A stretch of 64,000 bases of DNA from Eledone cirrhosa (taxonomy: Eukaryota), in contig OZ024743.1 of NCBI GenBank assembly GCA_964016885.1, forward strand, positions 183,644,001 to 183,708,000, given 5' to 3'. The position numbers were made by a program, and so were the translations under genes. The notes below the pieces were generated by a model. The model made no database searches. It worked only from the letters and a program-made list of their open reading frames with translations, and was not told the DNA's origin. This document shows positions 9,074 through 64,000 of this stretch, piece after piece; position 1 is the first letter of the stretch; every line of letters starts with the position of its first letter.

Positions 9074-9432
9074 CATCATCATCATCATCATCACCGTTTT
9101 ACGTCCGTTCTTCCACGCTAGCATGGGTTAGACGGGTTGTCCTGTTGTGGGCAGTGTCTGGTCGGCTGACCATGCCTTGCTCATACAGGAACTGATCTGG
9201 CTTGATTTCTACAGCTGGATGCCCTTCCTAACACCAACCTCATTTACAGTGAGTGCTGGGTGCTTTTTCGTGGCGCCTACACGTCCACTTTACAGTGTGG
9301 GCTGGGTGCTTTTTTGCCGTGGCACCTCCACGACCACCTTGCGGTGGGGGGGGGGGGGGCATATTGTTTATATGCTTCAGCATGTACCCATGGGAGGTCG
9401 GGTACCCTGTATTACTGCGTGACGCCAGAAGT
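9074..9432 (-). mobile_element. 3' end of RTE subfamily B (ORF end + long 3' UTR with gttaggaagggcatccagctgtagaa motif)
   Basis: near-identical reverse complement of 58968-59265; homologous to 20580-20945 and 51060-51430. Confidence 0.85.
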
Positions 9433-10098
9433 CTTATATTTCATAATATTTTGAGGTAAGAAACTCTTTATCAAATAAAGAAGAATTGGAGCATCTTGTT
9501 CTTATGGACTATTCTTTGTTGTGTGACTGACCATTGGTGGAATTAGCTCAGTGGAAATGTGACATATGTAGACTGGTCATAACAGCCAGGTAGTTCCTTG
9601 TAGCTCAGATCTGTTTTTAATACTACATTTATACCTGTTGATAAGAAGAGCCTCTCTCTATATATCATTATCATCATTGATTTTATCGATTTTTCCATGC
9701 TTGCATCGGTTGGATGTGTCCTATCAGCACAGCATCTTTCCATTTGCTGTGTTCCTTTGTCATCACCTCTGAGAGTCTGTGATTTGAGATCAGCTTTCAC
9801 CACCACTGCCCAGGTCTTCCTTGGTCCAGCTCTATTGTGTCACAATAAAAAGCACTCAGCCCACACTGTAAAGTGGCCATGTAGGAGTCATGACAAAAAG
9901 CACTCAACAAACACTGTAAATGTGGTTGGCATTAGGAAGGGCATCTAGCCATAGAAACTTAGCCAGAAACAGTTCTATATGAGCAAGATATGGTCACCTG
10001 ACCTGCCTTGCCTCTAATGGGACAACCCCTCTAACCTATGCTAATGTGGAAAATGGACATTAAATGACGACAATGATGATGATTTTATATATATATAT

Positions 10099-10915
10099 AT
10101 GCAGAAAAGGAACTGGCATAAATTCTATAAAATGCACACAATGTAGGTCCTGGGTACACAAGAGATGTAGCGGGATAGCAGGCAAACTAACAGGTAGGGA
10201 GAAATATGTATGCAGTAGATGTACAGGGAAATTAGACAGTAGAAGTCGCACTGATAGACACATTTTTCAAATGCGAGAGGGCGCTATAGAAGTGGTGGAT
10301 AGCTTCTGGTACCTAGGAGATCAGATTAGCATGGGAGGAGGGTGTTCCGAGGCCATAGTATCTAGAATAAGGACGGGTTGGAAGAAGTTTAGGGAGCTGC
10401 TTCCTCTGTTGACGAAGAAGGGTTTCTCCCTGCGTACGAAAGGCCGGTTGTATGATGCCTGTGTGAGGAGCGCGATGCTGCATGGTAGTGAGACATGGGC
10501 AGCTACCGCAGAAGATATACGACGGCTGGAGAGAAATGAGGCAAGCATGCTCCGTTGGATGTGCAGTGTAAATGTGCGTGAACGACCCAGCATAAATGTG
10601 TTGAGAGAGAAACTGTGTCTGAGAGGGATAGAATGTAGTGTACGGGAGAGGAGACTGAGGTGGTATGGACATGTGATGCGCATGGAGGATGACCGATGGG
10701 TGAAGAAGTGCCAGGAAATGCCAGTTGAAGGAAGACGTAGTAGAGGTAGACCACGAAAAACATGGGCGGAGGTGGTGAAAACAGACCTCAGATCATTGAA
10801 GCTCACGGTGGAGATGACGAGGGACCGTGACGAGTGGAGAGATGCTGTGCTGAATAAGACCCGTCCCACCCTTGCAAGCAGGGAAAAGCGGACGTAAAAT
10901 GATGATGATGATGAT
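10099..10915 (+). mobile_element. 5'-truncated RTE LINE (subfamily A) with uninterrupted C-terminal ORF, inserted in (TA)n
   Basis: ORF 10064-10897: F.YLG, LY.ACVRSAMLHGSETW, RRLRWYGHVMRM, GRPRKTW; (GAT)n tail; TA runs on both sides. Confidence 0.93.
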
Positions 10916-18680: not shown

Positions 18681-19075
18681 TTGACTTGATTAACTCATGT
18701 ATGTAAGGGGAAGTAACTTTATTGATATGAACAGCTTGAATGAAAAATTGCTTTATGTTGCTGTTTAGTCCCAGGTCAGCTCTGATTGAGCACACCTATG
18801 ATTTAGGTTACTATAGCAATAATGATACTGTTTTTTTAAAGATAATCTATTTGAGTTAGATGGTAGGGTATGTTTTGAGAGAGATTTGGTTGCTAGATAG
18901 TAGTTCTTCAGGTTGTTTTAGTAATTGTGGCTAAGGCCTTACTAGAGCACTATAGAGGATGACCAAAGAAAATTTTGGATGTCATCACTTAAATAGCAGA
19001 AGGGTCATCTTATACATAAGATGACTGACTATAAGGCAAGACAATATTCATATATACATATATATATATATATAT

Positions 19076-20945
19076 CTGGGTCGGTAGGTCACACCATAAC
19101 CACACGTATTGTTAACCAGGTAATACTAGAAGGTGTCATACCAAAGGATTGGTGCTGTAGCATCATTGTCAACTGCTACAAAGGTAAAGGTGATGCACTA
19201 GATAGAGGAAACTATAGAGGTATAAAGCTGATGGACCAGGTCATGAAAGTAACAGAAAGAGTTATAGCACAGTTGATTAGGGACCAGGTGAAACTAGATG
19301 AGATGCAATTTGGGTTTGTGCCAAGAAGAGGCACCACACTCTTCCTTGTGAGGCAGTTACAGGAAAAGTACCTAGCTAAAAGTAAGCCGCTCTACCTGGC
19401 ATTCATCGATCTCGAGAAAGCCTTCGACAGAGTCCCCTGTGCTATAATCTGGTGGGCTCTTAGAAAATTAGGAGTAGATGAATGGCTTGTGAAAGCTGTA
19501 CAAGCCATGTATAGGGGAGCAGTCAGCAAAGTTAGGATTAGCAATGACTATAGCAAGTAGTAATTTAGCATACAGGTCGGTGTCCACCAGGGCTCTGTTC
19601 TTAGCCCTCTCCTGTTCATCATAGTTCTGCAGGCAATAACGGAGGAGTTTAAGACCGGATGCCCATGGGAATTCCTGTATGCAGATGACCTTGCACTTAT
19701 AGCTGAATCTATGGTAGAACTAGCGAAGAAATTCCAAACTTGGAAGCAGGGACTAGAGAGAAAGGGTCTAAGAGTCAACCTGACAAAGACTAAGGTCCTT
19801 GTAAGTAGACGAGAAAACAGAACCCAGATCCCCTCAGGGAAATGGCCTTGCTCAGTGTGTAGGAAAGGTGTAGGTAGGAACTCCATTTCTCTGCCCCAAA
19901 TGCAAACAATGGGTACACAAGAGATGTAGCGGGATCTCAGGAAGCTTAACTAAGAATGTACGCTTCACATACAGCAGCTGTGCTGGGACAGCAAGTAGCA
20001 AACAGCCACAGGAAACAAGTACCACCAAACTCTGGGAGGGCTCTGTAGAAACAGTAGACAGCTTCTGCTACCTAGGTGACTGAATTAGCAGCGGAGGTGG
20101 GTGTTTGGAAAGTACAATAACTAGGGTAAGAACGGGATGGAAGAAGTTCAGGGAGCTACTGCCACTGCAAGCTGCAAAAGGCTTTTCCCTCAAAATGAAA
20201 GGCAGACTGCATGATGCGTGTATACGAACAGCAATGTTACATGGTAGTGAGACCTGGGCGCTGAAGGTGGAAGACTTACGTAGATTAGAAAGAAACGAAG
20301 CCTGCATGCTCCGATGGATGTGTAATAGTAATATACACGAACGGCAAAGCATAAATGAATTGAGAGAGAGACTGAGCATAAGATGCATCAAATGCTGTGT
20401 GCAGGAGAGACGGTTGCGTTGGTATGGACATGTGATGCGTATGAAGGATGACAGCTGCATAAAAAGGTACAGAGAACGAGAAGTCGATGGAAGCTGCGGA
20501 GTGGGGAGACCTGGGATGAGGTGATAAAAGCTGACCTTACCCAATTACACCTCTCAAAGGCGATGGCACACGACCATGACCTCTGGCATCATGCAGTAAT
20601 ACAGAAGACCCAACCCCCCCCACGGGTACAAGCTGAAGCTGAAGCATATAGACAATATTCCCCCCACTCCCTCCCACTGAAAAGTGGTCATGGAGGTGCC
20701 ACGGCAAAAAAGCCCCCAGCCCACACTGTAAAGTAGACGTGTAAGCGCCACGGAAAAAGCACCCAGTACTCACTGTAAATGAGGTTGGTGTTAGGAAGGG
20801 CATCCAGCTGTAGAAATCAAGCCAGAATCAGTTCCCATATGAGCAAGACAAAGTCAGCTGACCAGACACTGCCGACAACAGGACAACCTGTCTAACCCAT
20901 GCTAGCGTGGAAGAACTGACGTAAACCGGTGATGATGATGATGAT
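19076..20945 (+). mobile_element. 5'-truncated, frameshifted RTE LINE (subfamily B): RT domain, Cys-rich finger, C-terminus, 3' UTR
   Basis: KGKGD...NYRGIKL, QFGF, FIDLEKAFDRV, GVHQGSVLSPLLF, YADD, RRLRWYGHVMRM; (GAT)n tail; starts after a TA run. Confidence 0.95.
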
Positions 20946-21287: not shown

Positions 21288-21442
21288 CATGGAACTCCCT
21301 TCTTCATCTGACTCCCAAGCAAGGCAGATTTGCATATTTCTGAACAACTTTTGCTATTGATGATATAATGCGTGTACAGGTGGGTGGGCCTTTTGTATTA
21401 TAATATATCACCATAACATTATTTATGTTTGTATCATTCTAG

Positions 21443-21712
21443 AACTACCACAGACATCACCTGCAACCAATGCTGTGTCTCCAATGCAACCATTACCACA
21501 TGGTACTACACCTATGTCAGTCCCGGTGTCATATAATCAAGGACAAATGTCGAAGTCCCTTCCAGCTGTTACCCAACAATCAGTTCCATCAACCAGTTCA
21601 TCAACTGTATTTATACAACCACAACAACAACAACCTCCACCACTGCCACAACAACAATCATCACAACCCCAACAACACACACAGTCAGCTTATATACAAC
21701 AACACCCTCCTC

Positions 21713-21744
<32 letters not shown>

Positions 21745-22314
21745 CCTCAACAACAACCTCAACAACAACCTCAACAACAACCTCAACAACAACATCTCCA
21801 ACAGCAACAACACCAGCAACAACAACTACATAATCAACAGCAACAACAAGAACAAGTTATATCAGCCTCACAGACTCAACTGCCTCACCAACAAATTACT
21901 CCTGGCAGTACAATTTCTCTTTCAAATTTGGCTTCCCAACATCAGCAACATCATCAACAGCTGCAACTACAACAAAAGAATAAAAGCCAGGCAGCCATGT
22001 CAAATTCTACAAGTACTAGCCATTCTGATCAGTTTGTTAGTACTTCTCCTCCGACAGTGACTGCTACCCAGTCTGCTCAAACAAACATTGAAGGTGGGCT
22101 CTACTCTGCTGACTACTTGTCATCAGATAAAATTATTTCTGGTCCTTTGGCAACAGTAAACTTACCATTACCTAACCTATCAGGCAAAGAGAAAGGTACT
22201 GGCTCTGAATCTAACATAGCAGCTTTGCAACAGACCAAAGACACTCAAAAATTCACTGAACATATTAACAAAAGTTGTGTGAAACCTTCCAAAGTAGAAC
22301 CTAAAGTAAAAAAG
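21443..22314 (+). CDS. AAK1: AAK1/BMP2K-like large Gln/Pro-rich (polyQ) exon, ELPQTSPATNAVSPMQ...QQQPQQQ...KVEPKVKK
   Basis: attctag acceptor in phase with ORF 21475; AAG|gtttgt donor gives phase 0, matching the next exon; corresponds to the QPA-rich region of AAK1/BMP2K. Donor position less certain than acceptor. Confidence 0.85.
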
Positions 22315-23514
22315 GTTTGTGTATATATTTGTAAAGTCTTTGTATTTTTTGTTTTCAGTATAATTTTAAATATTGTATTTATTGCCACTGAACGGTTTTC
22401 TCTTTCTCTCTCATCACAGTTAAAATTAAACAATATAGGATCTAAGAAGACTCTTCTGTCTGAACGATCGTGTGACAACCTTTCTAGTGCTGGTAACATG
22501 ATAAAATGCACCCAGTACACCCTGTAAAAGGATAGTGCAGGTGCCGTGATAAAATGAACCCAGTACACTCTGTAAAAGGAGTAGTGCTGGTGCGATGGTA
22601 AAATGCATGCAATCCATTCTGTAATGTGGTATTGCTGGTGACACAAAAAAATGCACCCAGTACACCCTTCCCTGTAAGGTTGTTGGTGTTAGGAAGAGCA
22701 GCATGGAAAGTGCACATAAAAGTGTTGATGATGGTGAAATGTGTATAGACAAAATACTAGTGAAACATGGGAATAGAGTGTAGAGGATATAGAGCAACTG
22801 TCTGAGAAATGTTGAGAAATTAAGTAAAATGATGGGTGGGAGCAGCTAAGGCAGTCACAGATACATGTAGAAGATATGACATCTTGTTATATGTATATGT
22901 GACATTGGTAAATGATGCAAGTTGGATGGAATTGCAGTGGATTAAGATGTCATCATCATTATCACCATTTAGTGTCCATTTTTACACACTATCATGAGTT
23001 AGATGAGTTGTCATGTTGTGAGACAAGTCAGATCAGATGACCATGTCTTGCTCATATGGAACAGTTTCTGGCTTGGTTTCTATAGCCTGATGCCTTACCC
23101 AATGCCAATCACATTTATAGCATGGACTGGGTGTTCTTTATCGAAGCACCAAAAGGACCACTTTACAGTGTTGACTAGGTGCTTTTTATCAAGGCACCAA
23201 AAGGACCACTTTACAGTGTGGACTAGGTGCTTTTTATCCAGACACCAAAAGGACCACTTTACATTGTGGACTGTGTGCTTTTGTCCTTATCATCATCGTT
23301 TTTATGTCAACTTTTCCATGCTGGTATGGGTTGGATGGGACTTTTTGAGGTAATGTTTTACAGTCGGATTCCCTTCCAAACACCAACCCTTTTATAGCAT
23401 ACAGGGATACATATGTGTGAAATATAGATATATATGTGTGAAAAGCTATAGTATTGGAGACATCCAATTTATGATAGCATTAAATGAGACAAAAATTGTT
23501 TTAGAGAAAGATTT

Positions 23515-29099: not shown

Positions 29100-30865
29100 T
29101 ACACTACCACGCTTATGTCATCTGGTTTAACATCAATACCATGCTCATGTCATGGTTTAACATCACTACCACACTTATGTCATCTGGTTTAACATTATTA
29201 CCATGCTTATGTCATCTGGTTTAACATCACTACCATGTTCATGTCATCTGGTTTAACATCACTACCACGCTCATGTCAGGGTTTAACATCACTACCGCGC
29301 TCATGTCATCTGGTTTAACATCACTACCATGCTCATGTCATCTGTTTTAACATCACTAAAATGCTCATGTCCTCTGGTTTAATATCACTACCACTCTCAT
29401 GTCATTTGTTTTAACATCACTACCATGCTCATGTCATCTGGTTTAACAACACTACCATGGTCATGCCCTCTGGTTTAACATCACTACCACACTCATGTCG
29501 TCTGGTTTAACATCACTACCACCCTCATGTCATCTGGTTTAACATCTCTACCACTCTCATGTCATCTGGTTTAACATCTCTACCACTCTCATGTCATCTG
29601 GTTCAACATCACTACCACTCTCATGTCACCTGGTTTAACATCACTGCCACTCTCATGTCATCTTGTTTAACATCTCTATCTTGCTCATGTCATCTGGTTT
29701 AACATCAATTCCAAGCTCATGCCATCTGGTTTAACATCAATTCCAAGCTCATGCCATCTGGTTTAACATCAATTCCAAGCTCATGCCAACTGGTTTAACA
29801 TCACTACCATGCTCATGTCATCTGGTTTAACATCACTACCACAACCATGTCTTCTGGTTTAATATCACTACCATTCTCATGCCATCTGGTTTAACATCAC
29901 TATCATGCTCATTTTATCTGGTTTAACAACACTATCAGGCTCATGTAATCTGGTTTAACATCAATTCAATGCTCATGCCATCTGGTTTAACATCAATTCC
30001 ACACTCATACCATCTGGTTTAACATCACTACCATGCTCATGACATCTGGTTTAACATCATTACCATGCTCATGTCATCTGGTTTAACATCATTACCATGC
30101 TCATGTCATCTGGTTTAACATCACTACCACGCTTATGTCATCTGGTTTAAGATCACTACCATGCTCATGTCATCTGGTTTAAGATCACTACCACACTTAT
30201 GTCATCTGGTTTAAGATCACTACCACACTTATGTCATCTGGTTTAAGATCACTACCATGCTCATTTCATCTGGTTTAACATCACTACCATGCTCATGTCA
30301 TCCGGTTTAACATCACTGTCATGCTCATGTCATCTGGTTTAACATCACTACCATTCTCATGTCATGGTTTAACATTACTACCACGTCTATGTCATCTGGT
30401 TTAACATCACTACCATGCTCATGTCATCTGGTTTAACATCACTACCATGCTCATGTCATCTGGTTTAACATCACTACCATGCTCAGGTCATCCGGTTTAA
30501 CATCACTACCACACTCATGTCATCTGGTTTAACATCACTACCATTCTCATGTCATGGTTTAACATTACTACCATGCTCATGTCATCTGGTTTAACATCAT
30601 TACCATGCCCATGTCATCTGGTTTAACATTACTACCATGCTCATGTCATGGTTTAACATCACTACTATGCTCATGTCATCTGGTTTAACATCACTACCGT
30701 GCTCATGTCATCTGGTTTAACATCACTACCATGCTCATATCATCTGGTTTAACATTACTACCACGCTCATGTCATGGTTTAACATCATTTCCATGCTCAT
30801 GTCATCTGGTTTAACACCACTACTATGCTCATGTCATCTGGTTTAACATCACCCCAACGCTCATG
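29100..30865. repeat. 32-bp minisatellite, about 55 copies, with 29-bp variants
   Basis: unit atgtcatctggtttaacatcactaccatgctc. Confidence 0.97.
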
Positions 30866-40290: not shown

Positions 40291-43200
40291 TGATCGGACG
40301 CCTTTTTGCTCGCTCTCGTAAGTCTCTATATTTACCTGTCATAAATTATTTATTGTTAAATTTTTGTTGTTGTGTAAGGGATTTAAGTCCTTGGACTTTG
40401 CCCTGTGAATGGGAAAGTATAATATTTGGGCCTTTTGGCCCAAATATTTGAACTTTTTACATTTAAAAATTATCGAAAAAAAAGAAACATGGCTGAGCCC
40501 AGCGATATGTCTGCTGTCGTGTGACAATGACGTAAAAGTTGAGAGGATAGTTACGGTACAGTGAACACAGAAATTGATACAACAAACACCACCACAAACA
40601 ACGTGAACAAAGATAGCAATGACAACAACACTGAGAACACTAATTTTGAAAAAAATTACCACACCAACCAAAATACAGACAACAGAAAAAATGACAGCAA
40701 ATGCAACAACAATATTAACACCACTAACATGAAAACAAATAGCAACAACAGCAACAACACCAACAGCAACAATACAAATTGCACAGAGAACAACAACAAC
40801 AACACTAAAGACACAACCAACTGCAACAGTGATAACAGCAACAACACTAACAACACCATTTGTAGCACCAACAACAAGACCAGTAGCGGCAGCAACAATG
40901 ATGCCACTGAAAAAAGGCCCATCTCTTTTGCAAAGGTGGCTCGCAGAGTAGAAACAGTCCTGGTCACAGAGGAGGAGATGGCGGTCACAAGATACATGGT
41001 AACCAGAATTGAATTTTCAGTGTCCTTGAAACCACCAACCGACTTCCTGGAGGAACAAGAGCGACGTACAGTGTCATATCGCATGATTGTCACAAAATTG
41101 CATCATGTGGAGAGAGCCTCGGAGGCCCAAATCCAGAAAGCCTTGGAAACTGTTGTGGACACGGAAAACCCACATCACCCGAGCCAAGAAATATGCTACC
41201 GTGGACGTCCTTTTTGCTACCACCCAAGAAGCAAAATCGCACTCAATGAGGACCCTACGAAGTGATGACATAACATTAGTCCCGTTTTACTGCAGGAAAA
41301 AAATTGCAAAGGTCAAGGTAACCCAGGTTCCGCCCTACATACCTGGGCTGGTCGTGTCTGTTCTTGCGAGCATCGAGGATAGAACAACCATTCTGCAGGT
41401 ACAGAAGTTGGGGAGAGAGGACTGGTCTGGTATTGGAATGGAGATGTTCATCCAAACCGACCAGGACTGCATTAGCGCTATTCCTGACATAATAAACCTT
41501 GGGAATGGCTCCCAATTTCCCATATCTGTGGAAGGAAGGTGCCCAAAGTGCTTCAACTGTGGATCGAAGTCTCACTCAGGGACTTCTGCCCACAGAAAAT
41601 AAAGGCGAAGGCCCCCCTCTTTCCAACGCCGGAACCGCTGCCATCAGAAACAGTCAGCGAAAAAGTCAGGAGCTTCTACTGAGAGTAGGAAGACAACGTC
41701 CGTGGCGCCCACACCAAAGCTATGGACAACAAAAACAGCAGCGGCAACTGCAGCAACAGAAACAGTTGCACTAGCTGCACCTGTACCAAGAACGGCAGAC
41801 CAGGCTCCACCACCGCCACCAACAACAACAAAGAAAAATGAGATGGTAGAAATCATACGCCTCCCTGACCTCTCACAGTAGGACATGGAGTATGAGGTGG
41901 CTGAGGAGTGGAAAACGATTGTCAACAAACAAAACAAATGCAAAAATACCACAGCTTCTCCCTCCAAAAGTGAAGGCAAAGAAAGAGGGGTAAAGGCTGC
42001 AAGGAGACTTGCAGCAACACCACCACCATCACCACAACAAGCATCACCACCAACAACAACCACACCACCACCAACATCACCAAAAACAGCAACATCGCAA
42101 ACACAACAAAGCACACACACCCAACAGCAACAACAAGAAAACAGCAATACAATCACCCCACCCCCCACCCCCACCAAGTACACAGCCATAAATATCACAC
42201 ACAAAGGATTAATGGAACATATAAAACAACACACAGACATTACGGACATAAATTATCACACCCCACCAACACCAAGAACATTACCAAAAAATATTAACAT
42301 TGTAGAAATTAAACTCGAAGATTGCAAACAATTAAAACAAAAATTCCCCAAGGCAGTTGGGGATTTCAGTGGGGTCACTCTCCAAAAGAATCTATACAGA
42401 TATCATCTTGGAGACACCCATGACCAGCCGAAGGGACGGTTCTACTGTCCCTTGCCCACATGATCAAGGTAAGTGATCCTTTCTCACTTACCCCGTTCCT
42501 CACCCAGCATGGCCGTACTCAGAATAGGCAGTGTAAATGTACGTGGCCTGGGATCATCTTGGAAGCAGGATCACCTGCTCAACGACCTCAGGTCACTAAA
42601 CATAGTTGTGGAGGCCATCAGTGAGACCAGAATCTCCGAAGCATGAGCCTTCGCACCGATCTTCAGCGGCTACTGATGTATATATGCATCTCCTAGCCGT
42701 CCAGGATCAAGGGGAGGAGTTGCTGTGCTGGACATGACCGGCAATGGCCCGGTTACTGGAAGCTGAACGTGTCTTTCTCGGCGCGCCAAACTTACAGAGA
42801 CCGGATTAGCGAATTAGTTAAGCGTGCGTTGATGGGTGCAATCGCCAACAACAGGTGGGGGTTTACTCTGAAAAGGGTTATTACAGTAGAATCGATAATG
42901 TTTAGCAAAGGAGGAGTGATAGAGGGAGAGCTAGTTAGAAAAGCTAGAAGAGGCATTTAGGACAGGCATCGCAACCGACGTGCTTGCGACGAGATTGGCA
43001 CTCAACCAGTTCTTCAACACAAAGCATGAAGGCTGCGTTGTCAGTGCTAGAGCGCGTGCTCTGAGACACGAGGGGACGAAAGCTGTTCAATGGGCCCGGG
43101 TGGTCGAGGCGCGATGTGGTAATACATCCACAATTCGGTCTTTGCCTGATCAAAATGGGTGCATGTTGCTCGAACCCGAGCAGATGTGTACGGCTTTTCA

Positions 43201-44530
43201 ACAGCACTTTGCTCAATTGATCGGGAGTGATGGCGGGCTGGATTGGAGTATGGACTTCAGTGCATACCTCGATGGACTGTCGCGGCTCTCGACGACCGCA
43301 GCGCAGTGCTGCGAAAAGTCAATAACAGCAGGTGAAATACGGGAAGCGATGTCTGACTCCATGAGTGGTAAATCACCAGGATTGGATGGTCTGCCCTACG
43401 AGCTATATGCGTACATGGCAGACTTATTCGGTGACCTCTTGGCAGATGTCTACTGCAACTGGCAGCAGAACAGGAGCATTCCCAGTTTTGTGAGCCAAGC
43501 AGCAGTGGCGCTGCTGAGAAAAGACCTGAATAAGGGGGACGTTATAGACAACTTCAGGCCCATAACTCTACTAAACGCAGAGTTCAAGTTTTTGGCCAAG
43601 ATGTTAGCAAAGAGATTGGCGCTTGTCGTCAGTGACCTGGTGGGAGAGGCTGAGGCATGCACCATTCCGGACAGACCCATCCACGACAACCTCCATCTCA
43701 TGCGATACATCATAGAGAGGGTGGCTAAGGAAACTAGCACGGGTGGGGCCCTGATCAACGTGGATCAATCTAAAGCATTTGATAGGGTCAACCATTGGTA
43801 CCTGGCTGCGGTCCTCGAGGCAGCCGGCTTCGGGCCCATTTTTAGGGCTGGATCGCTGCGATGCACAGGGACATCTGCTCGATTGTGAGGGTGAATGGTC
43901 ACCTGTCGCAGCCGTTTAGCATCATGTGCTCGGTCCGAAAGAGTTGTCCCCTCTTGTCCCTACTGGCCCTCGAGCCGTTACTGCACAAATTGGAGATGAA
44001 AAGGGGGTCCCACGCGAACTGGGATGCAGGAGTTCCATGTCAGCTTATGCCGAAGATGTCACCGTGGTGGTGTCGAGCACCAAACACGTCCAGATGCTTG
44101 GCACCGCTCTCAAGGAATACGAAGCGGTGACAGAAGCAAAGATAAACCAGGGAAAGTCGGTGGGTTTGCAACTCAGCACCTGGAGAGAGAAGTCCATGCC
44201 TTCCGACAGCATCATGGGGCACTGGACGGAAGGATCTGTTAAATTGCTCGGGGTCTGGTTTGGTCCGGACCGCCAGATGGAGAAAAACTGGAGCAAGGTG
44301 ACGAGCAGGGTGGCCTCTCACCCAGAAATGGGCCGAGAGGAGGCTATCTCTGAAAGATCGGGCGGAGGTGGTGAATGCATACATCACGTCCGTCATCTGC
44401 TACCGCCTGACCGTCGTACCTTGCCCCCCGCCCAACTCTGACCAAAATAGAGCGACTTCTCTTCTGCTTTTTGTGGAAGGGACGTGGTCCCATGGTCAGA
44501 CAATCCATCTGCTGTCAGCACCCGTTGCAT
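40290..44530 (+). mobile_element. Tx1/L1-clade LINE, decayed and 3'-truncated: ORF1 (Asn/Thr-rich, zinc knuckle), ORF2 (APE start, RT)
   Basis: ORF1 CFNCGSKSH; ORF2 IGSVNVRGL..ISETR (near 42510), KSPGLDGLPYELY, NFRPITLLNAEFK.LAK.LA.RL, DQSKAFDRVNH, AYAEDV, KLLGVWFG; several frameshifts and stops; APE largely deleted. Confidence 0.92.
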
Positions 44531-46034: not shown

Positions 46035-46697
46035 GTAGATATTGGTTCTAGCTCTATATCATCTGTTAGTAGATACTATACTATCAGTTCCAGCTCTATA
46101 TCTGTTAGTAGATACTATACTATTAGTTCCAGCTCTGTATCAGTTAGTAGATACTAAACTATTAGCTCCAGCTCTATATCTGTTAGAAGATACTATACTA
46201 TTAGCTCCAGCTCTGTATCATGTTAATAGACACTATACTATTGGTTCCAGCTCTGTATCATCTGTTAGTAGATACTATACTATTAGTTCCAGCTCTATAT
46301 CATATTAGTAGATACTAAACTATTAGTTCCACTGCTATATCAGTTAGTAGATACTATACTATGAGTTCCAGCTCTATATTTGTTAGTAGATACAATACTA
46401 TTGGTTCCAGCTCTGTATCATCTGTTAGTAGATACTATACTATTAGTTCCAGCTCTATATCTGTTAGTAGATACTAAACTATTGGTTCCAGCTCTATATC
46501 TGTTAGTAGATACTATACTATTGGTTCCACCTCTATATCTGTTAGTAGATACTATACTATTGGTTCCAGCCCTATATCATTTGTTAGTAGATATTAAATT
46601 ATTAGTTCCAGCTCTATATCTGTTAGTAGATACTATACTATTAGTTCCAGCTCTATATTATCTGTTAGTACATACTATACTATTAGTTCCAGCTATA
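46035..46697. repeat. 39/42-bp minisatellite, about 16 copies
   Basis: unit tctgttagtagatactatactattagttccagctctata. Confidence 0.95.
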
Positions 46698-46909
46698 TTG
46701 AACTAAAAACCTTACAATATTTACATTTCTACATCAAATTTGCCTTTCATCACTCCAGATTAAAAATAATGAAATTATTTGTAATTAGCAATTTAATGTA
46801 ATAAATCAGTTTAGTGTAGTCTTCTCTCATCTACCTCCTTTGTTTTTAATCAATGATGATAATAATAATTGCTGTTATTTTCTCTAACTTAAATGTTTTT
46901 ATTCTCTAG

Positions 46910-55520: not shown

Positions 55521-55880
55521 TGTGTGTGTATGAATATATGTGTGTGTGTATGAATATATATATGTGTGTATGAATATATATATGTGTGTACATGAATATA
55601 TATATGTATGTCTGTATGAATATATATATATAAACCCATGCTAGCATGGAAGATAGATGTTAAATGATGATGATGTTTGTATGAATACATATATGTATGT
55701 ATGTATGAATATATATATATGTGTTTATGAATATATATATATGTGTTTATGAATATATATATGTATGTATGAATATATATATGTATGTGTTTATGAATAT
55801 ATATATGTATATATGTATGAATATATATATGTATGTGTGTGTATGAATATATATATATATGTATGTATGAATATATATAT

Positions 55881-56536
55881 GTATCCCAGTACAACCTGTC
55901 CCATGGTCGGGTCGTTGGCGACTAAACTGGCAACCCCACCAAGGTTTCTTGGTGAGGAGGGTGACTTTGGACATCCTGCAGGACTAAACACAAAACCTGT
56001 CAAAGGGCAAAGGAGCTCTTAAGAGTCAATGGCCATCCAAAATCACCGGGAGAGATGACCCCTTAGCCTTTGTCAAGGCAGAATTCTAGGAGAAGGAAAA
56101 CTCTGATATAACACCTGCAACCCTGATGGTTTCCAATGATGTTGACTTGTTCTTCTTTTTGGTAAATATCATCTTGGTTAAGAGAGTGGGACTGGCTTTG
56201 TGCAGTGCCTTTGCTCACTATAAAAGCTTCACAGCACAGGCATTGCTTTATATCTGGAGATCTCTCTGCACTTGTCGTCACATGGTACCATGGGCCCAGC
56301 ACTATGTGTCAATAATTGTCACAAGTGTAGTGTTTGTACCAGAGTTTTCAAGTTGCTGGCTGGACTAAAAAGTCACACTCGTTCAGCGCATCGGTAGGGG
56401 TTCTCCTACATGGATATAAAGTAGTGGCCGTACTCGAAAACGAGTTGGCAGCCACCATGTATGTATGAATATATATGTATGTATGTACGTATGAATATAT
56501 GAATATATATGTATGTATGTATGAATATATATATTC

Positions 56537-56615
<79 letters not shown>

Positions 56616-56630
56616 TACATACACACATAC

Positions 56631-56705
<75 letters not shown>

Positions 56706-57608
56706 CATACACACATATATATATATATATATACATACATATATGGTGGCTGCCAACTCGTTTTCGAGTACGGCCACTACTTTATATCCATGTAGGAAAA
56801 CTCCTACCGATGCGCTGAACGAGTGTGACATTTTAGTCCAGCCAGCGACGTGAAAACTCTGGCACAAACACTACATTTGTGACAATTATTGACACATAGT
56901 GCTGGGCCCATGGTACCATGTGACAAGTGCAGAGAGATCTCCAGATATAAAGCAATGCCTGTGCCGTGAAGCTTTTATAGTGAGCAAAGGCACTGCACAA
57001 AGCCAATCCCACTCTCTTAACCAAGATGATATTTACCAAAATCACCTGGAGAGATGACCCCTTAGCCTTTGTCAAGGCAGAATTCTAGGAGAAGGAAAAC
57101 TCTGATATAACACCTGCAACTCTGATGGTATCCAATGATGTTGACATACATATATATGGTGGCTGCCAACTCGTTTTCGAGTACGGCCACTACTTTATAT
57201 CCATGTAGGAGAACCCCTACTGATGCGCTGAACGAGTGTGACTTTTTAGTCCAGCCAGCGACTTGAAAGCTCTGGTACAAACACTACACTTGTGACAATT
57301 ATTGACACATAGTGCTGGGCCCATGGTACCATGTGACGACAAATGCAGAGAGATCTCCAGATACAAAGCAATGCCTGTGCCGTGAAGCTTTTATAGTGAG
57401 CAAAGGCACTGCACAAAGCCAGTCCCACTCTCTTAACCAAGATGATATTTACCAAAAAGAAGAACAAGTCAACATCATTGGATACCATCAGGGTTGCAGG
57501 TGTTATATCAGAGTTTTCCTTCTCCTAGAATTCTGCCTTGACAAAGGCTAAGGGGTCATCTCTCCCGGTGATTTTGGATGGCCATTGACTCTTAAGAGCT
57601 CCTTTGCC
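55881..57608. mobile_element. four alternating-orientation fragments of one element, probably an RTE 5' region
   Basis: 55881-56458(+), 56743-57040(-), 57037-57145(+), 57156-57608(-) nearly identical; ctaggagaaggaaaactctgat motif; diverged relative at about 34500-34897. Confidence 0.75.
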
Positions 57609-57643
57609 TTTTTTTTATATATATATACATACATATATATATA

Positions 57644-57722
<79 letters not shown>

Positions 57723-57783
57723 ATATATATATATATGTGTGTGTGTGTATATATATATATATGTGTGTATATATATATATATA

Positions 57784-57826
<43 letters not shown>

Positions 57827-57839
57827 ATATATATATATA

Positions 57840-57884
<45 letters not shown>

Positions 57885-58016
57885 CTGTATATATATATAT
57901 GTGTATGTATATATATATGTATATATATATATATATATATATGTAAAAACAAATAACGAAACAAAATTAAATTTCGTTTCGCTTCCAACTCACTTTTGTA
58001 TGACTGACGCTTAAAC

Positions 58017-58574
58017 AATTAAGTTAAAAGTGTACATCTACATATGTATACTGAAATACTAGTATGCATATAAATACACACATGTATACATATGTACATG
58101 TACTGAGTTTTTCACTGGACACTTTACTGTGAGTGTCCAGCTAGTCTGTATGTAACCAAACAGACAAACCGGGTTTTAGAGTCATACGGGTTTTCAAGGA
58201 AACACATTTCCTCTATTCTCCAGAGAGCCAGACAGGAATATTGGACTAGTTTCGATGTTATTATATCTCATCAGCAATATATACCCATCTTCCGGCTTCT
58301 CTAGAGAATCGTAAAAGCACATATCGTTATATGCTTTTTCTATGAAAATTAGTAGTGGGCAGACTAATTTGCATAGAACGCGAGTCATTGTACGCACCGG
58401 TTCAGCGGAAACGATAACCCGGTTTTTCTGTTTGGTTACATACAGACTAGCTGGACACTCACAGTAAAGTGTCCAGTGAAAAACTCAGTACATGTACATA
58501 TGTATACATGTGTGTATTTATATGCATACTAGTATTTCAGTATACATATGTAGATGTACACTTTTAACTTAATT
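58017..58574. mobile_element. 558-bp fold-back element with 159-bp inverted arms and a hammerhead in the spacer
   Basis: 58017-58175 is the reverse complement of 58416-58574 with one mismatch seen; lies within (TA)n fields. Confidence 0.9.
58238..58280 (-). ncRNA. minimal type-I hammerhead ribozyme with intact core
   Basis: - strand reads auauug-CUGAUGA-gau(auaauaac)auc-GAAAC-ua-GUC/caauau: 6-bp stem I, 3-bp stem II, palindromic ACUAGU stem III, GUC triplet. Confidence 0.85.
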
Positions 58575-58691
58575 ATATATATGTATATATATATATATGT
58601 GTGTATATATATGTATATATATATATATGTGTGTATATATATGTATATATATATATGTATATATATGTATATATATGTATATATATATATA

Positions 58692-58736
<45 letters not shown>

Positions 58737-58851
58737 GTATATATATATGTATATATATATATATATATATATAAATGTATATATATATATATATGTATAT
58801 ATATATAAATGTATATATATATATGTATGTATATATATGTATATATATATG

Positions 58852-58882
<31 letters not shown>

Positions 58883-58967
58883 GTATATATATATATGTAT
58901 ATATATATATGTATATATATATATATGTATATATATATATGTATATATATATATGTATATATATATA

Positions 58968-59265
58968 GAAGCATATAAACAATATGCCCCCCCCCCCCAC
59001 CGCAAGGTGGTCGTGGAGGTGCCACGGCAAAAAAGCACCCAGCCCACACTGTAAAGTGGACGTGTAGGCGCCACGAAAAAGCACCCAGCACTCACTGTAA
59101 ATGAGGTTGGTGTTAGGAAGGGCATCCAGCTGTAGAAATCAAGCCAGATCAGTTCCTGTATGAGCAAGGCATGGTCAGCCGACCAGACACTGCCCACAAC
59201 AGGACAACCCGTCTAACCCATGCTAGCGTGGAAGAACGGACGTAAAACGGTGATGATGATGATGA
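58968..59265 (+). mobile_element. RTE subfamily B 3' UTR fragment in (TA)n
   Basis: near-identical to the reverse complement of 9074-9380. Confidence 0.88.
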
Positions 59266-59870: not shown

Positions 59871-60019
59871 GTATATATATATAAATGTATATATATAAAT
59901 GTATATATATATAAATGTATATATATATAAATGTATATATATATAAATGTATATATATATGTATATATATATAAATGTATATATATATAAATGTATATAT
60001 ATATGTATATATATATATA

Positions 60020-61671
60020 ATAATGAAATGACAGGAGGCTGGATTTGTGTAAATCCTTGTAAGGTTTATTATACTATGATCATTTCAATGACCGGGTTCC
60101 GTATGATATCATCAGGTATTCGGTGATATCATCAGGTATTCAAAATATAATACGTGAATGTAATAGATAAAATCCATGGGGCTGAAAATCGAGGACCCGA
60201 GGGCGACCGCTATCTTGCACCCTCTATCTTAGCCGGTCGCCCTCGAGTGACGTGGCTAAGGCTCACAGTGTGCTACTACCAGTCAGATAAAGGAAAACAG
60301 AAATGGATGGGAACATAAGTTACAAGACAAAAGAAAGAAAGAAAGGAAGGAGAGTGAGGAAGGGGGAAGGAAGAAGAGGAGAAGCCAGGGTCAATGTCAG
60401 TTATAAGAAGAAAGACAGAAAGAAAGAGGAGGAAAGGTCGGTATTACAGTCAGGCCAGGATTGTCGCGAAGAAATTTTTTTATTCTACGGGACCCGTATC
60501 TAAACAACTACTACCGGTCAGATATAGGCGAACAAAAAGGGGGAAGGAAGATAAGTCTGCGGGAGGAAGACAGAAAGAGGGGAGAAAAGAAGGAAGAAAA
60601 GGAAGAAGTAGAAGAGTAAGGGTTGATGGCTACAAGAAGGAAGATAGAAAGAAAGAGGGGAGAAAGGTTGATATTAATGTCAGACTACAGTCAGGCCAGG
60701 AGTGGCACGAGAAAATTTTCACAGGGACCCGTATCTTAGCAGAGGTGAATATAGTGGGGGTCAGTGTGTTATAATGTGTGAGCAGAAGATTGGAACATTA
60801 CGTTTTTGTTTAGACTTAGAGGATGAAGTTAAAAATTAATAATCAATAATTAATATCAAAGAAATTAGAAAATTTAAAGTTAAACAGTTTAACATTTTAA
60901 GGTTGATATATCTAATAGTTCTGATTTGGTCTGTAATTTAAAGGTACTATGTGACGGTTAAAAACCGGCCGCGCTCCGGGACGAATTAAGCCACTCCGAG
61001 TATTTTCATTTACCGAAAGAAGGGGAAATTTATTTTTCCAAGCACTCAAGGTAGGCCCTTGCCTCAGGGTGCGCCGCCATTAAAACCCACCCAACAGTCC
61101 GACAGAAAGTTGGAACTTTAAAATATTGTTTAAATTTATAGGATGAAGTTGAAGGAATTCAGAATAACATTATAAAATTAAAGAGTAGAGGATTGAGAAT
61201 TGAACGAACAGAAAATTGAAAATCAAACATTTAAAAAAAACTTCTATAAGGTTTTGGGTTGCGGGGTTTAATTAAAGAGAGTCTTTTATGAAGAGACGTT
61301 AATTGTATTATGTAGATCTATAATTTATCCTAGTGGGATGTAGAGTACGGGATATAGTCGGGTAATATTTATGGATTTTATCTATTACATTCACGTATTA
61401 TATTTCGAATACCTGATGATATCACCGAATACCTGATGATATCTTACGGAACCCGGTCATTGAAATGATCATAGTATAATAAACCTTACAAGGATTTACA
61501 CAAATCCAGCCTCCTGTCATTTCATTATAATATTTAACTCCGTAATAGCACCACCAACTACAAAAACAAAGACGGTTGAACTGCTTTACGTTGAGTACTC
61601 TCTATATTATTACATTACGATTGACCATACGGAATAGACCAGCTCTATACAGTGGTGAACCTCAAACCTGA
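60020..61671 (+). mobile_element. Penelope-like element relic with inverted pseudo-LTR
   Basis: 60020-60177 inverted vs 61371-61528; hammerhead-like motif in the repeat; decayed GIY-YIG-like peptides on + strand (SDLV.N.K, KTGR...RI..H, LIKESLL*RD); flanked by (TA)n. Confidence 0.7.
61409..61477 (+). ncRNA. hammerhead-like motif with duplicated CUGAUGA box; mirror copy at about 60071-60139 (-)
   Basis: auac-CUGAUGA...GAAA-UGAUCA-UA/guau; palindromic AUGAUCAU stem III; imperfect stem II. Confidence 0.6.
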
Positions 61672-62209: not shown

Positions 62210-62332
62210 ACGTGGGAAAGTAAAAAATCGGAGAATAGACCGTTAAAACATGTTTATTTAAAACGGCACCTACGTACGTTTTAAATAAACATGTTTTAAC
62301 GGTCTATTCTCCGATTTTTTACTTTCCCACGT
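62210..62332. repeat. perfect hairpin, about 55-bp arms with a ~10-nt loop, beside (TA)n
   Basis: acgtgggaaagtaaaaaatcggagaatagaccgttaaaacatgtttatttaaaacg followed by its exact reverse complement. Confidence 0.92.
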
Positions 62333-62518
62333 GCTTACGCTCTGCTAACTCTCTAGCCCACTAAATATTAACACTTCGAATATTTAATACTGCCGGCACT
62401 AGTATCGAGCACCTTTGGCATACGCTACTTGGTAAATAACTATATGTATCACCTATCCTCCCTTTTTTTCTCTTTCTCGATACGTAAATACTATATGTAT
62501 ATATGTATATGTATATAT

Positions 62519-63556: not shown

Positions 63557-64000
63557 ATATATATATATAGATAGATAGATAAATATACACGGGTGTGTAT
63601 GATTGTGTATAGAAGATTATATTAATAAGAGGAATTCCAACTTTGTCTGATTTACTCGTTTTATTTACAATCCTTTAAAATTTATAATGGTATTATAATG
63701 AAATAATATGATAGAATATTAAATTCTAAGTGTTAATTGAACAAGTACTTTCATGCTTTCGCAATCTTCAGGTTCATAATATGTGGTGACAGTCAAGTTT
63801 GCAATTTTCAACTGTAATAAGATGGGTAAATTTTCTACCTTTTATACATTTTATACAGGGAAAAGTGGCTCCAGAATCCTAAGTTTTGCAAACTGTATTT
63901 TGACCAATCAGTGTGTAGTTTCACTGAATTACTAAAGCTGATTGGTTTAAGCGTCACGGCTGGTTGAGCATGTCTAACGGCCAATAATTAATCATATCCA

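Follow-up and report, generated by a model that had tools for sequence, protein, structure and literature searches.

The locus studied here raises the question of how a long fold-back and a self-cutting RNA motif came to lie together in a TA microsatellite of Eledone cirrhosa. Two nearly identical inverted arms enclose a spacer with a hammerhead ribozyme, and the original prediction took the whole for a young, ORF-less ribozyme element that looks like a MITE but is probably mobilised as RNA by a Penelope RT. In our analysis of the window (i. e. the whole 64-kb stretch of DNA, not only the fold-back), the interval 57944-58574 is, with a probability of roughly three in four, a single insertion made by the RT/GIY-YIG machinery of a Penelope-like element (PLE) in the TA microsatellite. 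The arms most likely represent one 3' end that was copied twice at insertion, and not the termini of a MITE.

Layout of the insertion

The features of the locus and of its neighbours are listed in Table 1. As predicted, the inverted arms are 159 nt long each, with a single mismatch at 58165, and enclose a spacer of 240 nt. One mismatch per 159 positions is consistent with the predicted young age; the insertion is probably recent. The (TA)n field in which the arms had been placed is found on both sides of 57944-58574, so that the proposed microsatellite target holds, but only the right arm touches it directly. The left arm first meets 73 bp of non-TA sequence.

Table 1. Features of the fold-back locus and neighbouring features in the window
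Feature	Position	Strand	Basis
Target field (TA)n/(TATG)n, left side	57616-57943	.	Repeat mask; TRF mask end at 57942
Candidate PLE tail: one-sided 3' extension of 73 bp, abuts (TA)n	57944-58016	-	TRF, fold; tail role after PMC8557442 and PMC11167929
Left arm, 3' part of main copy (sense, minus strand)	58017-58175	-	Sequence comparison
Unique stretch with short hairpin, between ribozyme and left arm	58176-58214	-	Sequence and fold
Type-I hammerhead, helix I with a long extension; core 58274-58244	58215-58309	-	Descriptor, fold, Rfam HH9
Upstream part of main copy with two stable hairpins; putative 5' truncation point 58415	58310-58415	-	Fold
Head-to-head junction (58415/58416), bridged by an imperfect hairpin (RNA, -8.9 kcal/mol)	58394-58426	+	Fold
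Right arm: second copy of the main copy's 3' end, inverted, shorter and 5'-truncated; lacks the tail and continues into (TA)n	58416-58574	+	Sequence comparison
Target field (TA)n/(TATG)n, right side	58575-58967	.	Repeat content
Second fold-back, within (TA)n; arms of 166 nt that differ at 4 positions; extension (~135 bp) to about 61672	60012-61536
Third fold-back: 123-nt palindrome (95%), no spacer, TA repeats on both sides; extension (~160 bp) to about 62492	62210-62332
Hammerhead-like motif at 63771, 158 nt from TA/TAGA field	63585-63800	-	Looser descriptor

Read along the minus strand, which would be the sense strand, the insertion has two parts: a main copy of 472 nt, truncated at 58415, and an inverted second copy, whose 159 nt repeat this 3' end without its final 73 nt. 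No terminal redundancy is present inside the 472-nt main copy, and in self-comparison its upstream part (58310-58415) has no similarity to the arm or to the 73-bp extension. The spacer has no second copy in the 64-kb window, and 57944-58574 holds a single ribozyme core. The extension, in which a 13-bp stem-loop is predicted at 57955-57983 (RNA fold), likewise occurs nowhere else in the 64-kb window. It is spanned by a 25-codon frame without stop or Met (57944-58018, minus strand). In some PLEs the start of the ORF is covered by the tail (PMC3846280); we considered this frame as such an ORF start and left it as unsupported.

A target-site duplication is not readable in the microsatellite, and the sequences that flank the arms are not alike (...TTAAAC on the left, ATATAT... 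on the right), with TTAA close to both arm ends. The GC content of the insertion is 0.30-0.40, i. e. below 45%. No remnant of PLE RT/GIY-YIG coding sequence was detected in 57944-58574, where the longest frame starting with Met has 64 codons. That the element itself is ORF-less, as originally proposed, does not follow from a copy that is apparently 5'-truncated at 58415.

The hammerhead ribozyme

The minus strand of the spacer contains a complete type-I hammerhead core. Helix I has 6 bp (58280-58275/58243-58238) and is followed by CUGAUGA (58274-58268); helix II has 3 bp (58267-58265/58256-58254), the first of them G-C. GAAA (58253-58250) and the palindrome ACUAGU of helix III (58250-58245) complete the core, C17 is 58244, and the predicted cut lies between 58244 and 58243. 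A strict descriptor (helix I of at least 6 bp, helix II of at least 3 bp, palindromic helix III) matched once in the real window and in none of 100 dinucleotide-shuffled windows. Together with the fold, this confirms the core that had been proposed, with the same predicted cut. The 97-nt ribozyme region has a z-score of -4.64, and equal stability was reached in 0 of 200 shuffles; for the fold of the 240-nt spacer the z-score is -4.76.

In the search with type-I hammerhead models, Rfam HH9 aligned over the full model (1-77) with 28.9 bits and E=1.5e-5, but the gathering score of 52 was not reached. At gathering scores no Rfam family of any kind matched in the 64-kb window, and matches to miRNA families within it were rejected as AT-repeat noise. 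At -31.8 kcal/mol, the active-like monomer fold is less stable by 2.2 kcal/mol than the minimum-energy fold (-34.0 kcal/mol). Pairing probabilities are 0.75-0.77 for helix II and 0.29-0.38 for helix I, and they are the same when the whole 631-nt RNA is folded. The predicted continuation of stem I past an internal loop is present; it sets in right behind a small internal loop (58290-58284/58230-58236) and reaches 58309/58215. However, the pairing agccgga:ucuggcu which had been assigned to it is only a competing register, seen in the centroid fold.

The motif had also been assigned to the minimal hammerheads of PLEs. In these, helix II has 7-8 bp, helix I has 4-5 bp and an extra base follows A9 (PMC4209133). 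The Eledone ribozyme shares with the minimal hammerheads of metazoan PLEs the type-I form, the G10.1-C11.1 pair, the palindromic 15.2-16.2 and the expected dimer. In contrast to them it has a helix I of 6 bp with a long extension, a helix II of 3 bp and no base after A9, and it resembles more closely the canonical form and those variants whose helix III is small and palindromic (PMC4209133). Judged by its sequence, the architecture is canonical-like and not the minimal PLE form, and the assignment to the latter is not supported. Cleavage as a dimer, reviewed for hammerheads in PMC6765202, would be permitted by the palindromic helix III, as had been expected; the intermolecular duplex of ACUAGU amounts to -6.2 kcal/mol. 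Yet the ribozyme is alone at this locus, and thus a cis dimer or a self-excised circle is impossible here.

Neighbouring fold-backs and motifs

Three fold-backs were found in 57.9-62.5 kb, and in each of them only one side carries an extension, which is followed by TA-type repeats. The second fold-back encloses a purine-rich interior of ~1.2 kb with no Pfam match; each of its arms contains a hammerhead-like motif, and the two motifs lie on opposite strands and read outwards. These motifs have a 20-nt duplication of the CUGAUGA part, the palindrome AUGAUCAU, an AUA triplet and a weak helix II whose basal position is U.U; Rfam hammerhead models gave no match in 60030-61670. In the third fold-back with its extension (62210-62492) no hammerhead core was found. 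The separate motif at 63771 has the core CUGAAGA, a helix II of U.U and then 3 bp, a GAAA loop and the palindrome AGUACU, and at its 5' side it may extend beyond the end of the window.

With the looser descriptor, six core positions were observed against 0.02 expected per window, the chance rate in shuffled windows. The six correspond to three independent motifs, all of which lie in 58-64 kb; the first 58 kb contain none. Each of the three motifs faces an end that abuts a microsatellite, 63-300 nt away. The weak helix II of the neighbouring motifs counts against them. Comparison of the window with itself revealed no sequence common to the three fold-backs and motif elements. Since the neighbours are unrelated and yet have identical geometry, this geometry would be a product of the insertion process.

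The host DNA around these structures is rich in TA repeats and RTE-like fragments. Three SINE/LINE-like copies, 95-98% identical, lie in direct and inverted order at 55870-57612, and an inversion of 110 nt at the 5' end of the middle one (56745-57145) resembles twin priming and may have arisen in this way. Two SINE-like sequences (9094-9378 and 58968-59250), 50 kb apart, are 99.3% identical over 285 nt, which points to a very recent family. Pieces of broken non-LTR retrotransposons are found at 10064-10897 (PHD at 10064), 18997-20524 and 40543-44441 (RVT_1 at 18997 and 42935). A Gln-rich open frame of 387 codons (21364-22527, plus strand; no Pfam match) is probably a host exon. Minisatellites, judged by self-matches, occupy 460-993, 29101-30865 and 46040-46698, with periods of ~59, ~32 and ~40 nt, respectively.

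Related sequences

Scanning for the core pattern yielded two records in the metagenome collection (L001 and L002), none in viral contigs and none in prokaryote genomes. In L001 (1-2270) the core is located ~260 nt behind two overlapping frames, of which the first matches Pfam RVT_1 (E=3.2e-10), the RT frame being frameshifted. A PDB search with this RT frame gave one weak match to an RT (E=0.004), and tblastn of the L001 RT frames against the 64-kb window gave no match. From its context and its motifs, we take the RT to be that of a PLE; L001 probably represents a PLE without endonuclease from a microbial eukaryote. The likeness of L001 to the Eledone element is confined to the 31-nt core, and L002 likewise shares only the core. 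On sequence grounds L001 is company kept by the motif and not a member of the family. The core of L001 is set among telomeric CCCTAA repeats, a context that has been described for endonuclease-less PLEs (PMC8557442).

In the sequencing-run index, queried by word content with 51 words, part of the stretch is present in 20 of 24 rows; these rows are left out of the evidence. Three shares from one sample of organism A in a single study are 0.55, 0.49 and 0.49, organism B from a second study has 0.31, and the other 16 are at most 0.20. Among the rows listed there is no RNA holder. In the literature on octopus hammerheads and on octopus Penelope-like/Neptune elements we found no paper on the Eledone 57944-58574 family and, judged from listings, nothing on a fixed fold-back ribozyme family. 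Repbase/Dfam or the supplements of PMC8557442 and of a 2026 preprint (10.64898/2026.07.22.740005) may already contain the family.

Origin of the fold-back

PLE insertions are 5'-truncated and often have an inverted 5'-truncated copy adjoining their 5' end, with inverted repeats around the unit (PMC8557442, PMC3846280, PMC8969392). A tail of 30-40 bp is present at one end (PMC8557442, PMC11167929), and palindromes occur at the inverted junctions (PMC3846280). Microsatellites are favoured by Hydra, Naiad and Neptune PLEs, and (TA)n by those of Hydra and Naiad (PMC8557442). Truncated PLEs with dual hammerheads on opposite strands and with lone motifs are also known (PMC4209133).

The inverted truncated partner, the one-sided candidate tail and the (TA)n flanks of the Eledone locus correspond to this published signature and thereby support a PLE insertion. 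Support also comes from the ribozyme, which is directed to the side of the extension, with 227 nt to the end of the arm and 300 nt to the end of the extension. The same holds for the one-sided geometry common to the three fold-backs, and for the clustering of hammerhead-type motifs at 58-64 kb, each facing an end that abuts a microsatellite. Of the two metagenome records with the core, L001 with its RT frame also speaks for this reading, though it has nothing beyond the 31-nt core in common with the locus. Compared with the head-to-head inverted-pLTR insertions of EN+ PLEs, especially Neptune/Hydra (PMC8557442, PMC3846280), the locus shares the truncated inverted partner, the one-sided extension, the (TA)n target, a type-I hammerhead near the 3' end (here at 227-300 nt), the junction hairpin and the clustering. 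Unlike those insertions, it has an extension of 73 bp instead of 30-40 bp, a canonical-like hammerhead and no RT/GIY-YIG in the copy. These differences count against our reading, as does the single copy of the family in the window, by which the tail stays a candidate and variable truncation points a prediction.

The anole PLE protein offers a possible route to such a structure. In vitro it cuts and extends both strands of DNA, prefers AT-rich sequence and is predicted to be a dimer, and reverse transcription begins at two start sites that bound the tail (PMC11167929). These two start sites suggest two cDNAs for our locus. The first would have started at the outer site, i. e. the end of the tail (~57944), and would have covered the arm and the ribozyme before it ended after 472 nt at 58415; the second would have started 73 nt further in, at 58017, and reached a length of only 159 nt. 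Joined head to head, the two cDNAs would turn the shared 3' end into inverted arms and leave the tail on one side only. Instead of two priming events, self-priming of a fold-back, as proposed in PMC3846280, would be compatible with the junction hairpin. In either case the arms would have arisen at insertion, and, unlike in the original prediction, they are not necessarily a feature that the element itself carries: an inverted truncated copy with a one-sided tail is the ordinary pattern of PLE insertions.

The hammerhead would belong to the terminal (pLTR-type) region of the element. In a tandem transcript of the parent, cleavage would presumably proceed best as a dimer through the palindromic helix III, whereas in the present copy the ribozyme would be a lone passenger. 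The ribozyme of the anole PLE requires the protein for cleavage and is dispensable for insertion in vitro (PMC11167929).

The nature of the parent is a question of its own. Non-LTR retrozymes are marked by canonical hammerheads, and their mobilisation by PLEs has been proposed (PMC7229834; 10.64898/2026.07.22.740005). According to the 2026 preprint they are derived from PLE terminal repeats, and solo monomers also occur (10.64898/2026.07.22.740005). With the animal non-LTR retrozymes described there (PMC7229834; bioRxiv 10.64898/2026.07.22.740005) the Eledone copy has in common that it is non-coding, highly structured and below 45% GC, and that its canonical type-I hammerhead has a short palindromic helix III. 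It differs from them in having one ribozyme and an inverted partner, and no tandem. The copy is not a retrozyme as defined by at least two tandem hammerhead units, but its parent may be one. The locus thus probably works like an insertion by PLE machinery whose parent was either a non-coding, retrozyme-like derivative or an autonomous PLE that was cut short; we regard the chances of the two as about even.

Alternative explanations

An explanation that we consider improbable, yet the best of the alternatives, is that the fold-back itself is a fixed non-coding family: a 159-bp hairpin RNA with a looped hammerhead, copied as a whole by a PLE RT. It would be a multi-copy hairpin mobilised by Penelope, cleaved in trans as a dimer and annotated as a MITE though moved as RNA, and this we hold to be equally improbable. 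The ribozyme does fold in the same way within the whole 631-nt RNA, its canonical-like form is that of retrozymes, an ORF is absent, and derived copies can repeat inverted pLTR structures (PMC3846280). However, the extension is one-sided, and unrelated neighbours show the same geometry with other arm and spacer lengths, which rather indicates that the structure arose as a by-product of insertion. Nor could a unit-length RNA be released by one ribozyme, and a second copy was not seen in the 64-kb window.

The probability is lower still that the inversion is a chimera of assembly or amplification, made from the ordinary single end of a PLE or retrozyme. Near-identical arms within a low-complexity field would fit such an artefact, and tandem and inverted structures of PLEs do trouble assemblies (PMC8557442). 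Against it, the arms differ at one site and those of 60012-61536 at 4 of 166, and every fold-back ends at a microsatellite with a one-sided extension, which is not expected of random chimeras. Moreover, such structures are genuine in other animals (PMC3846280).

Least probable is a DNA-transposon MITE or foldback element with true TIRs that captured a PLE or retrozyme fragment bearing the hammerhead: it would share with our locus the shortness, the absence of coding sequence and the long near-perfect inverted arms (159 bp) about a non-coding spacer, and the TTAA by both arm ends is readable as a duplication, but the differing flanks of the arms speak against a TA duplication, the ends are asymmetric, the ribozyme has a polarity, no target duplication is readable flush with the repeats, and the outward-reading ribozymes of the neighbours would be left unexplained. 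With TTAA as the duplication, the termini would start with GTTAAAAG, which is not known as a piggyBac-type end.

Implications

The view that a MITE look-alike was most likely moved as RNA by Penelope-type machinery is supported, and the combination of a self-cutting RNA motif with a fold-back is most likely a known footprint of PLEs and not a new kind of element. If 57944-58574 is indeed a PLE insertion of two truncated copies back to back, it contributes a further family end to a class that is already well described. Only a fixed hairpin would be new, namely a retro-mobilised mimic of a MITE and a handle on the role of the PLE hammerhead. This role is still puzzling, since ribozyme mutants were without effect on insertion in vitro (PMC11167929). 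The locus is also a warning, for genomes of this kind, that a fold-back in a TA field can be labelled as a MITE by mistake when it is the footprint of a PLE. The known range of tail lengths would become wider if the three extensions (~73, ~135 and ~160 bp) were confirmed as tails.
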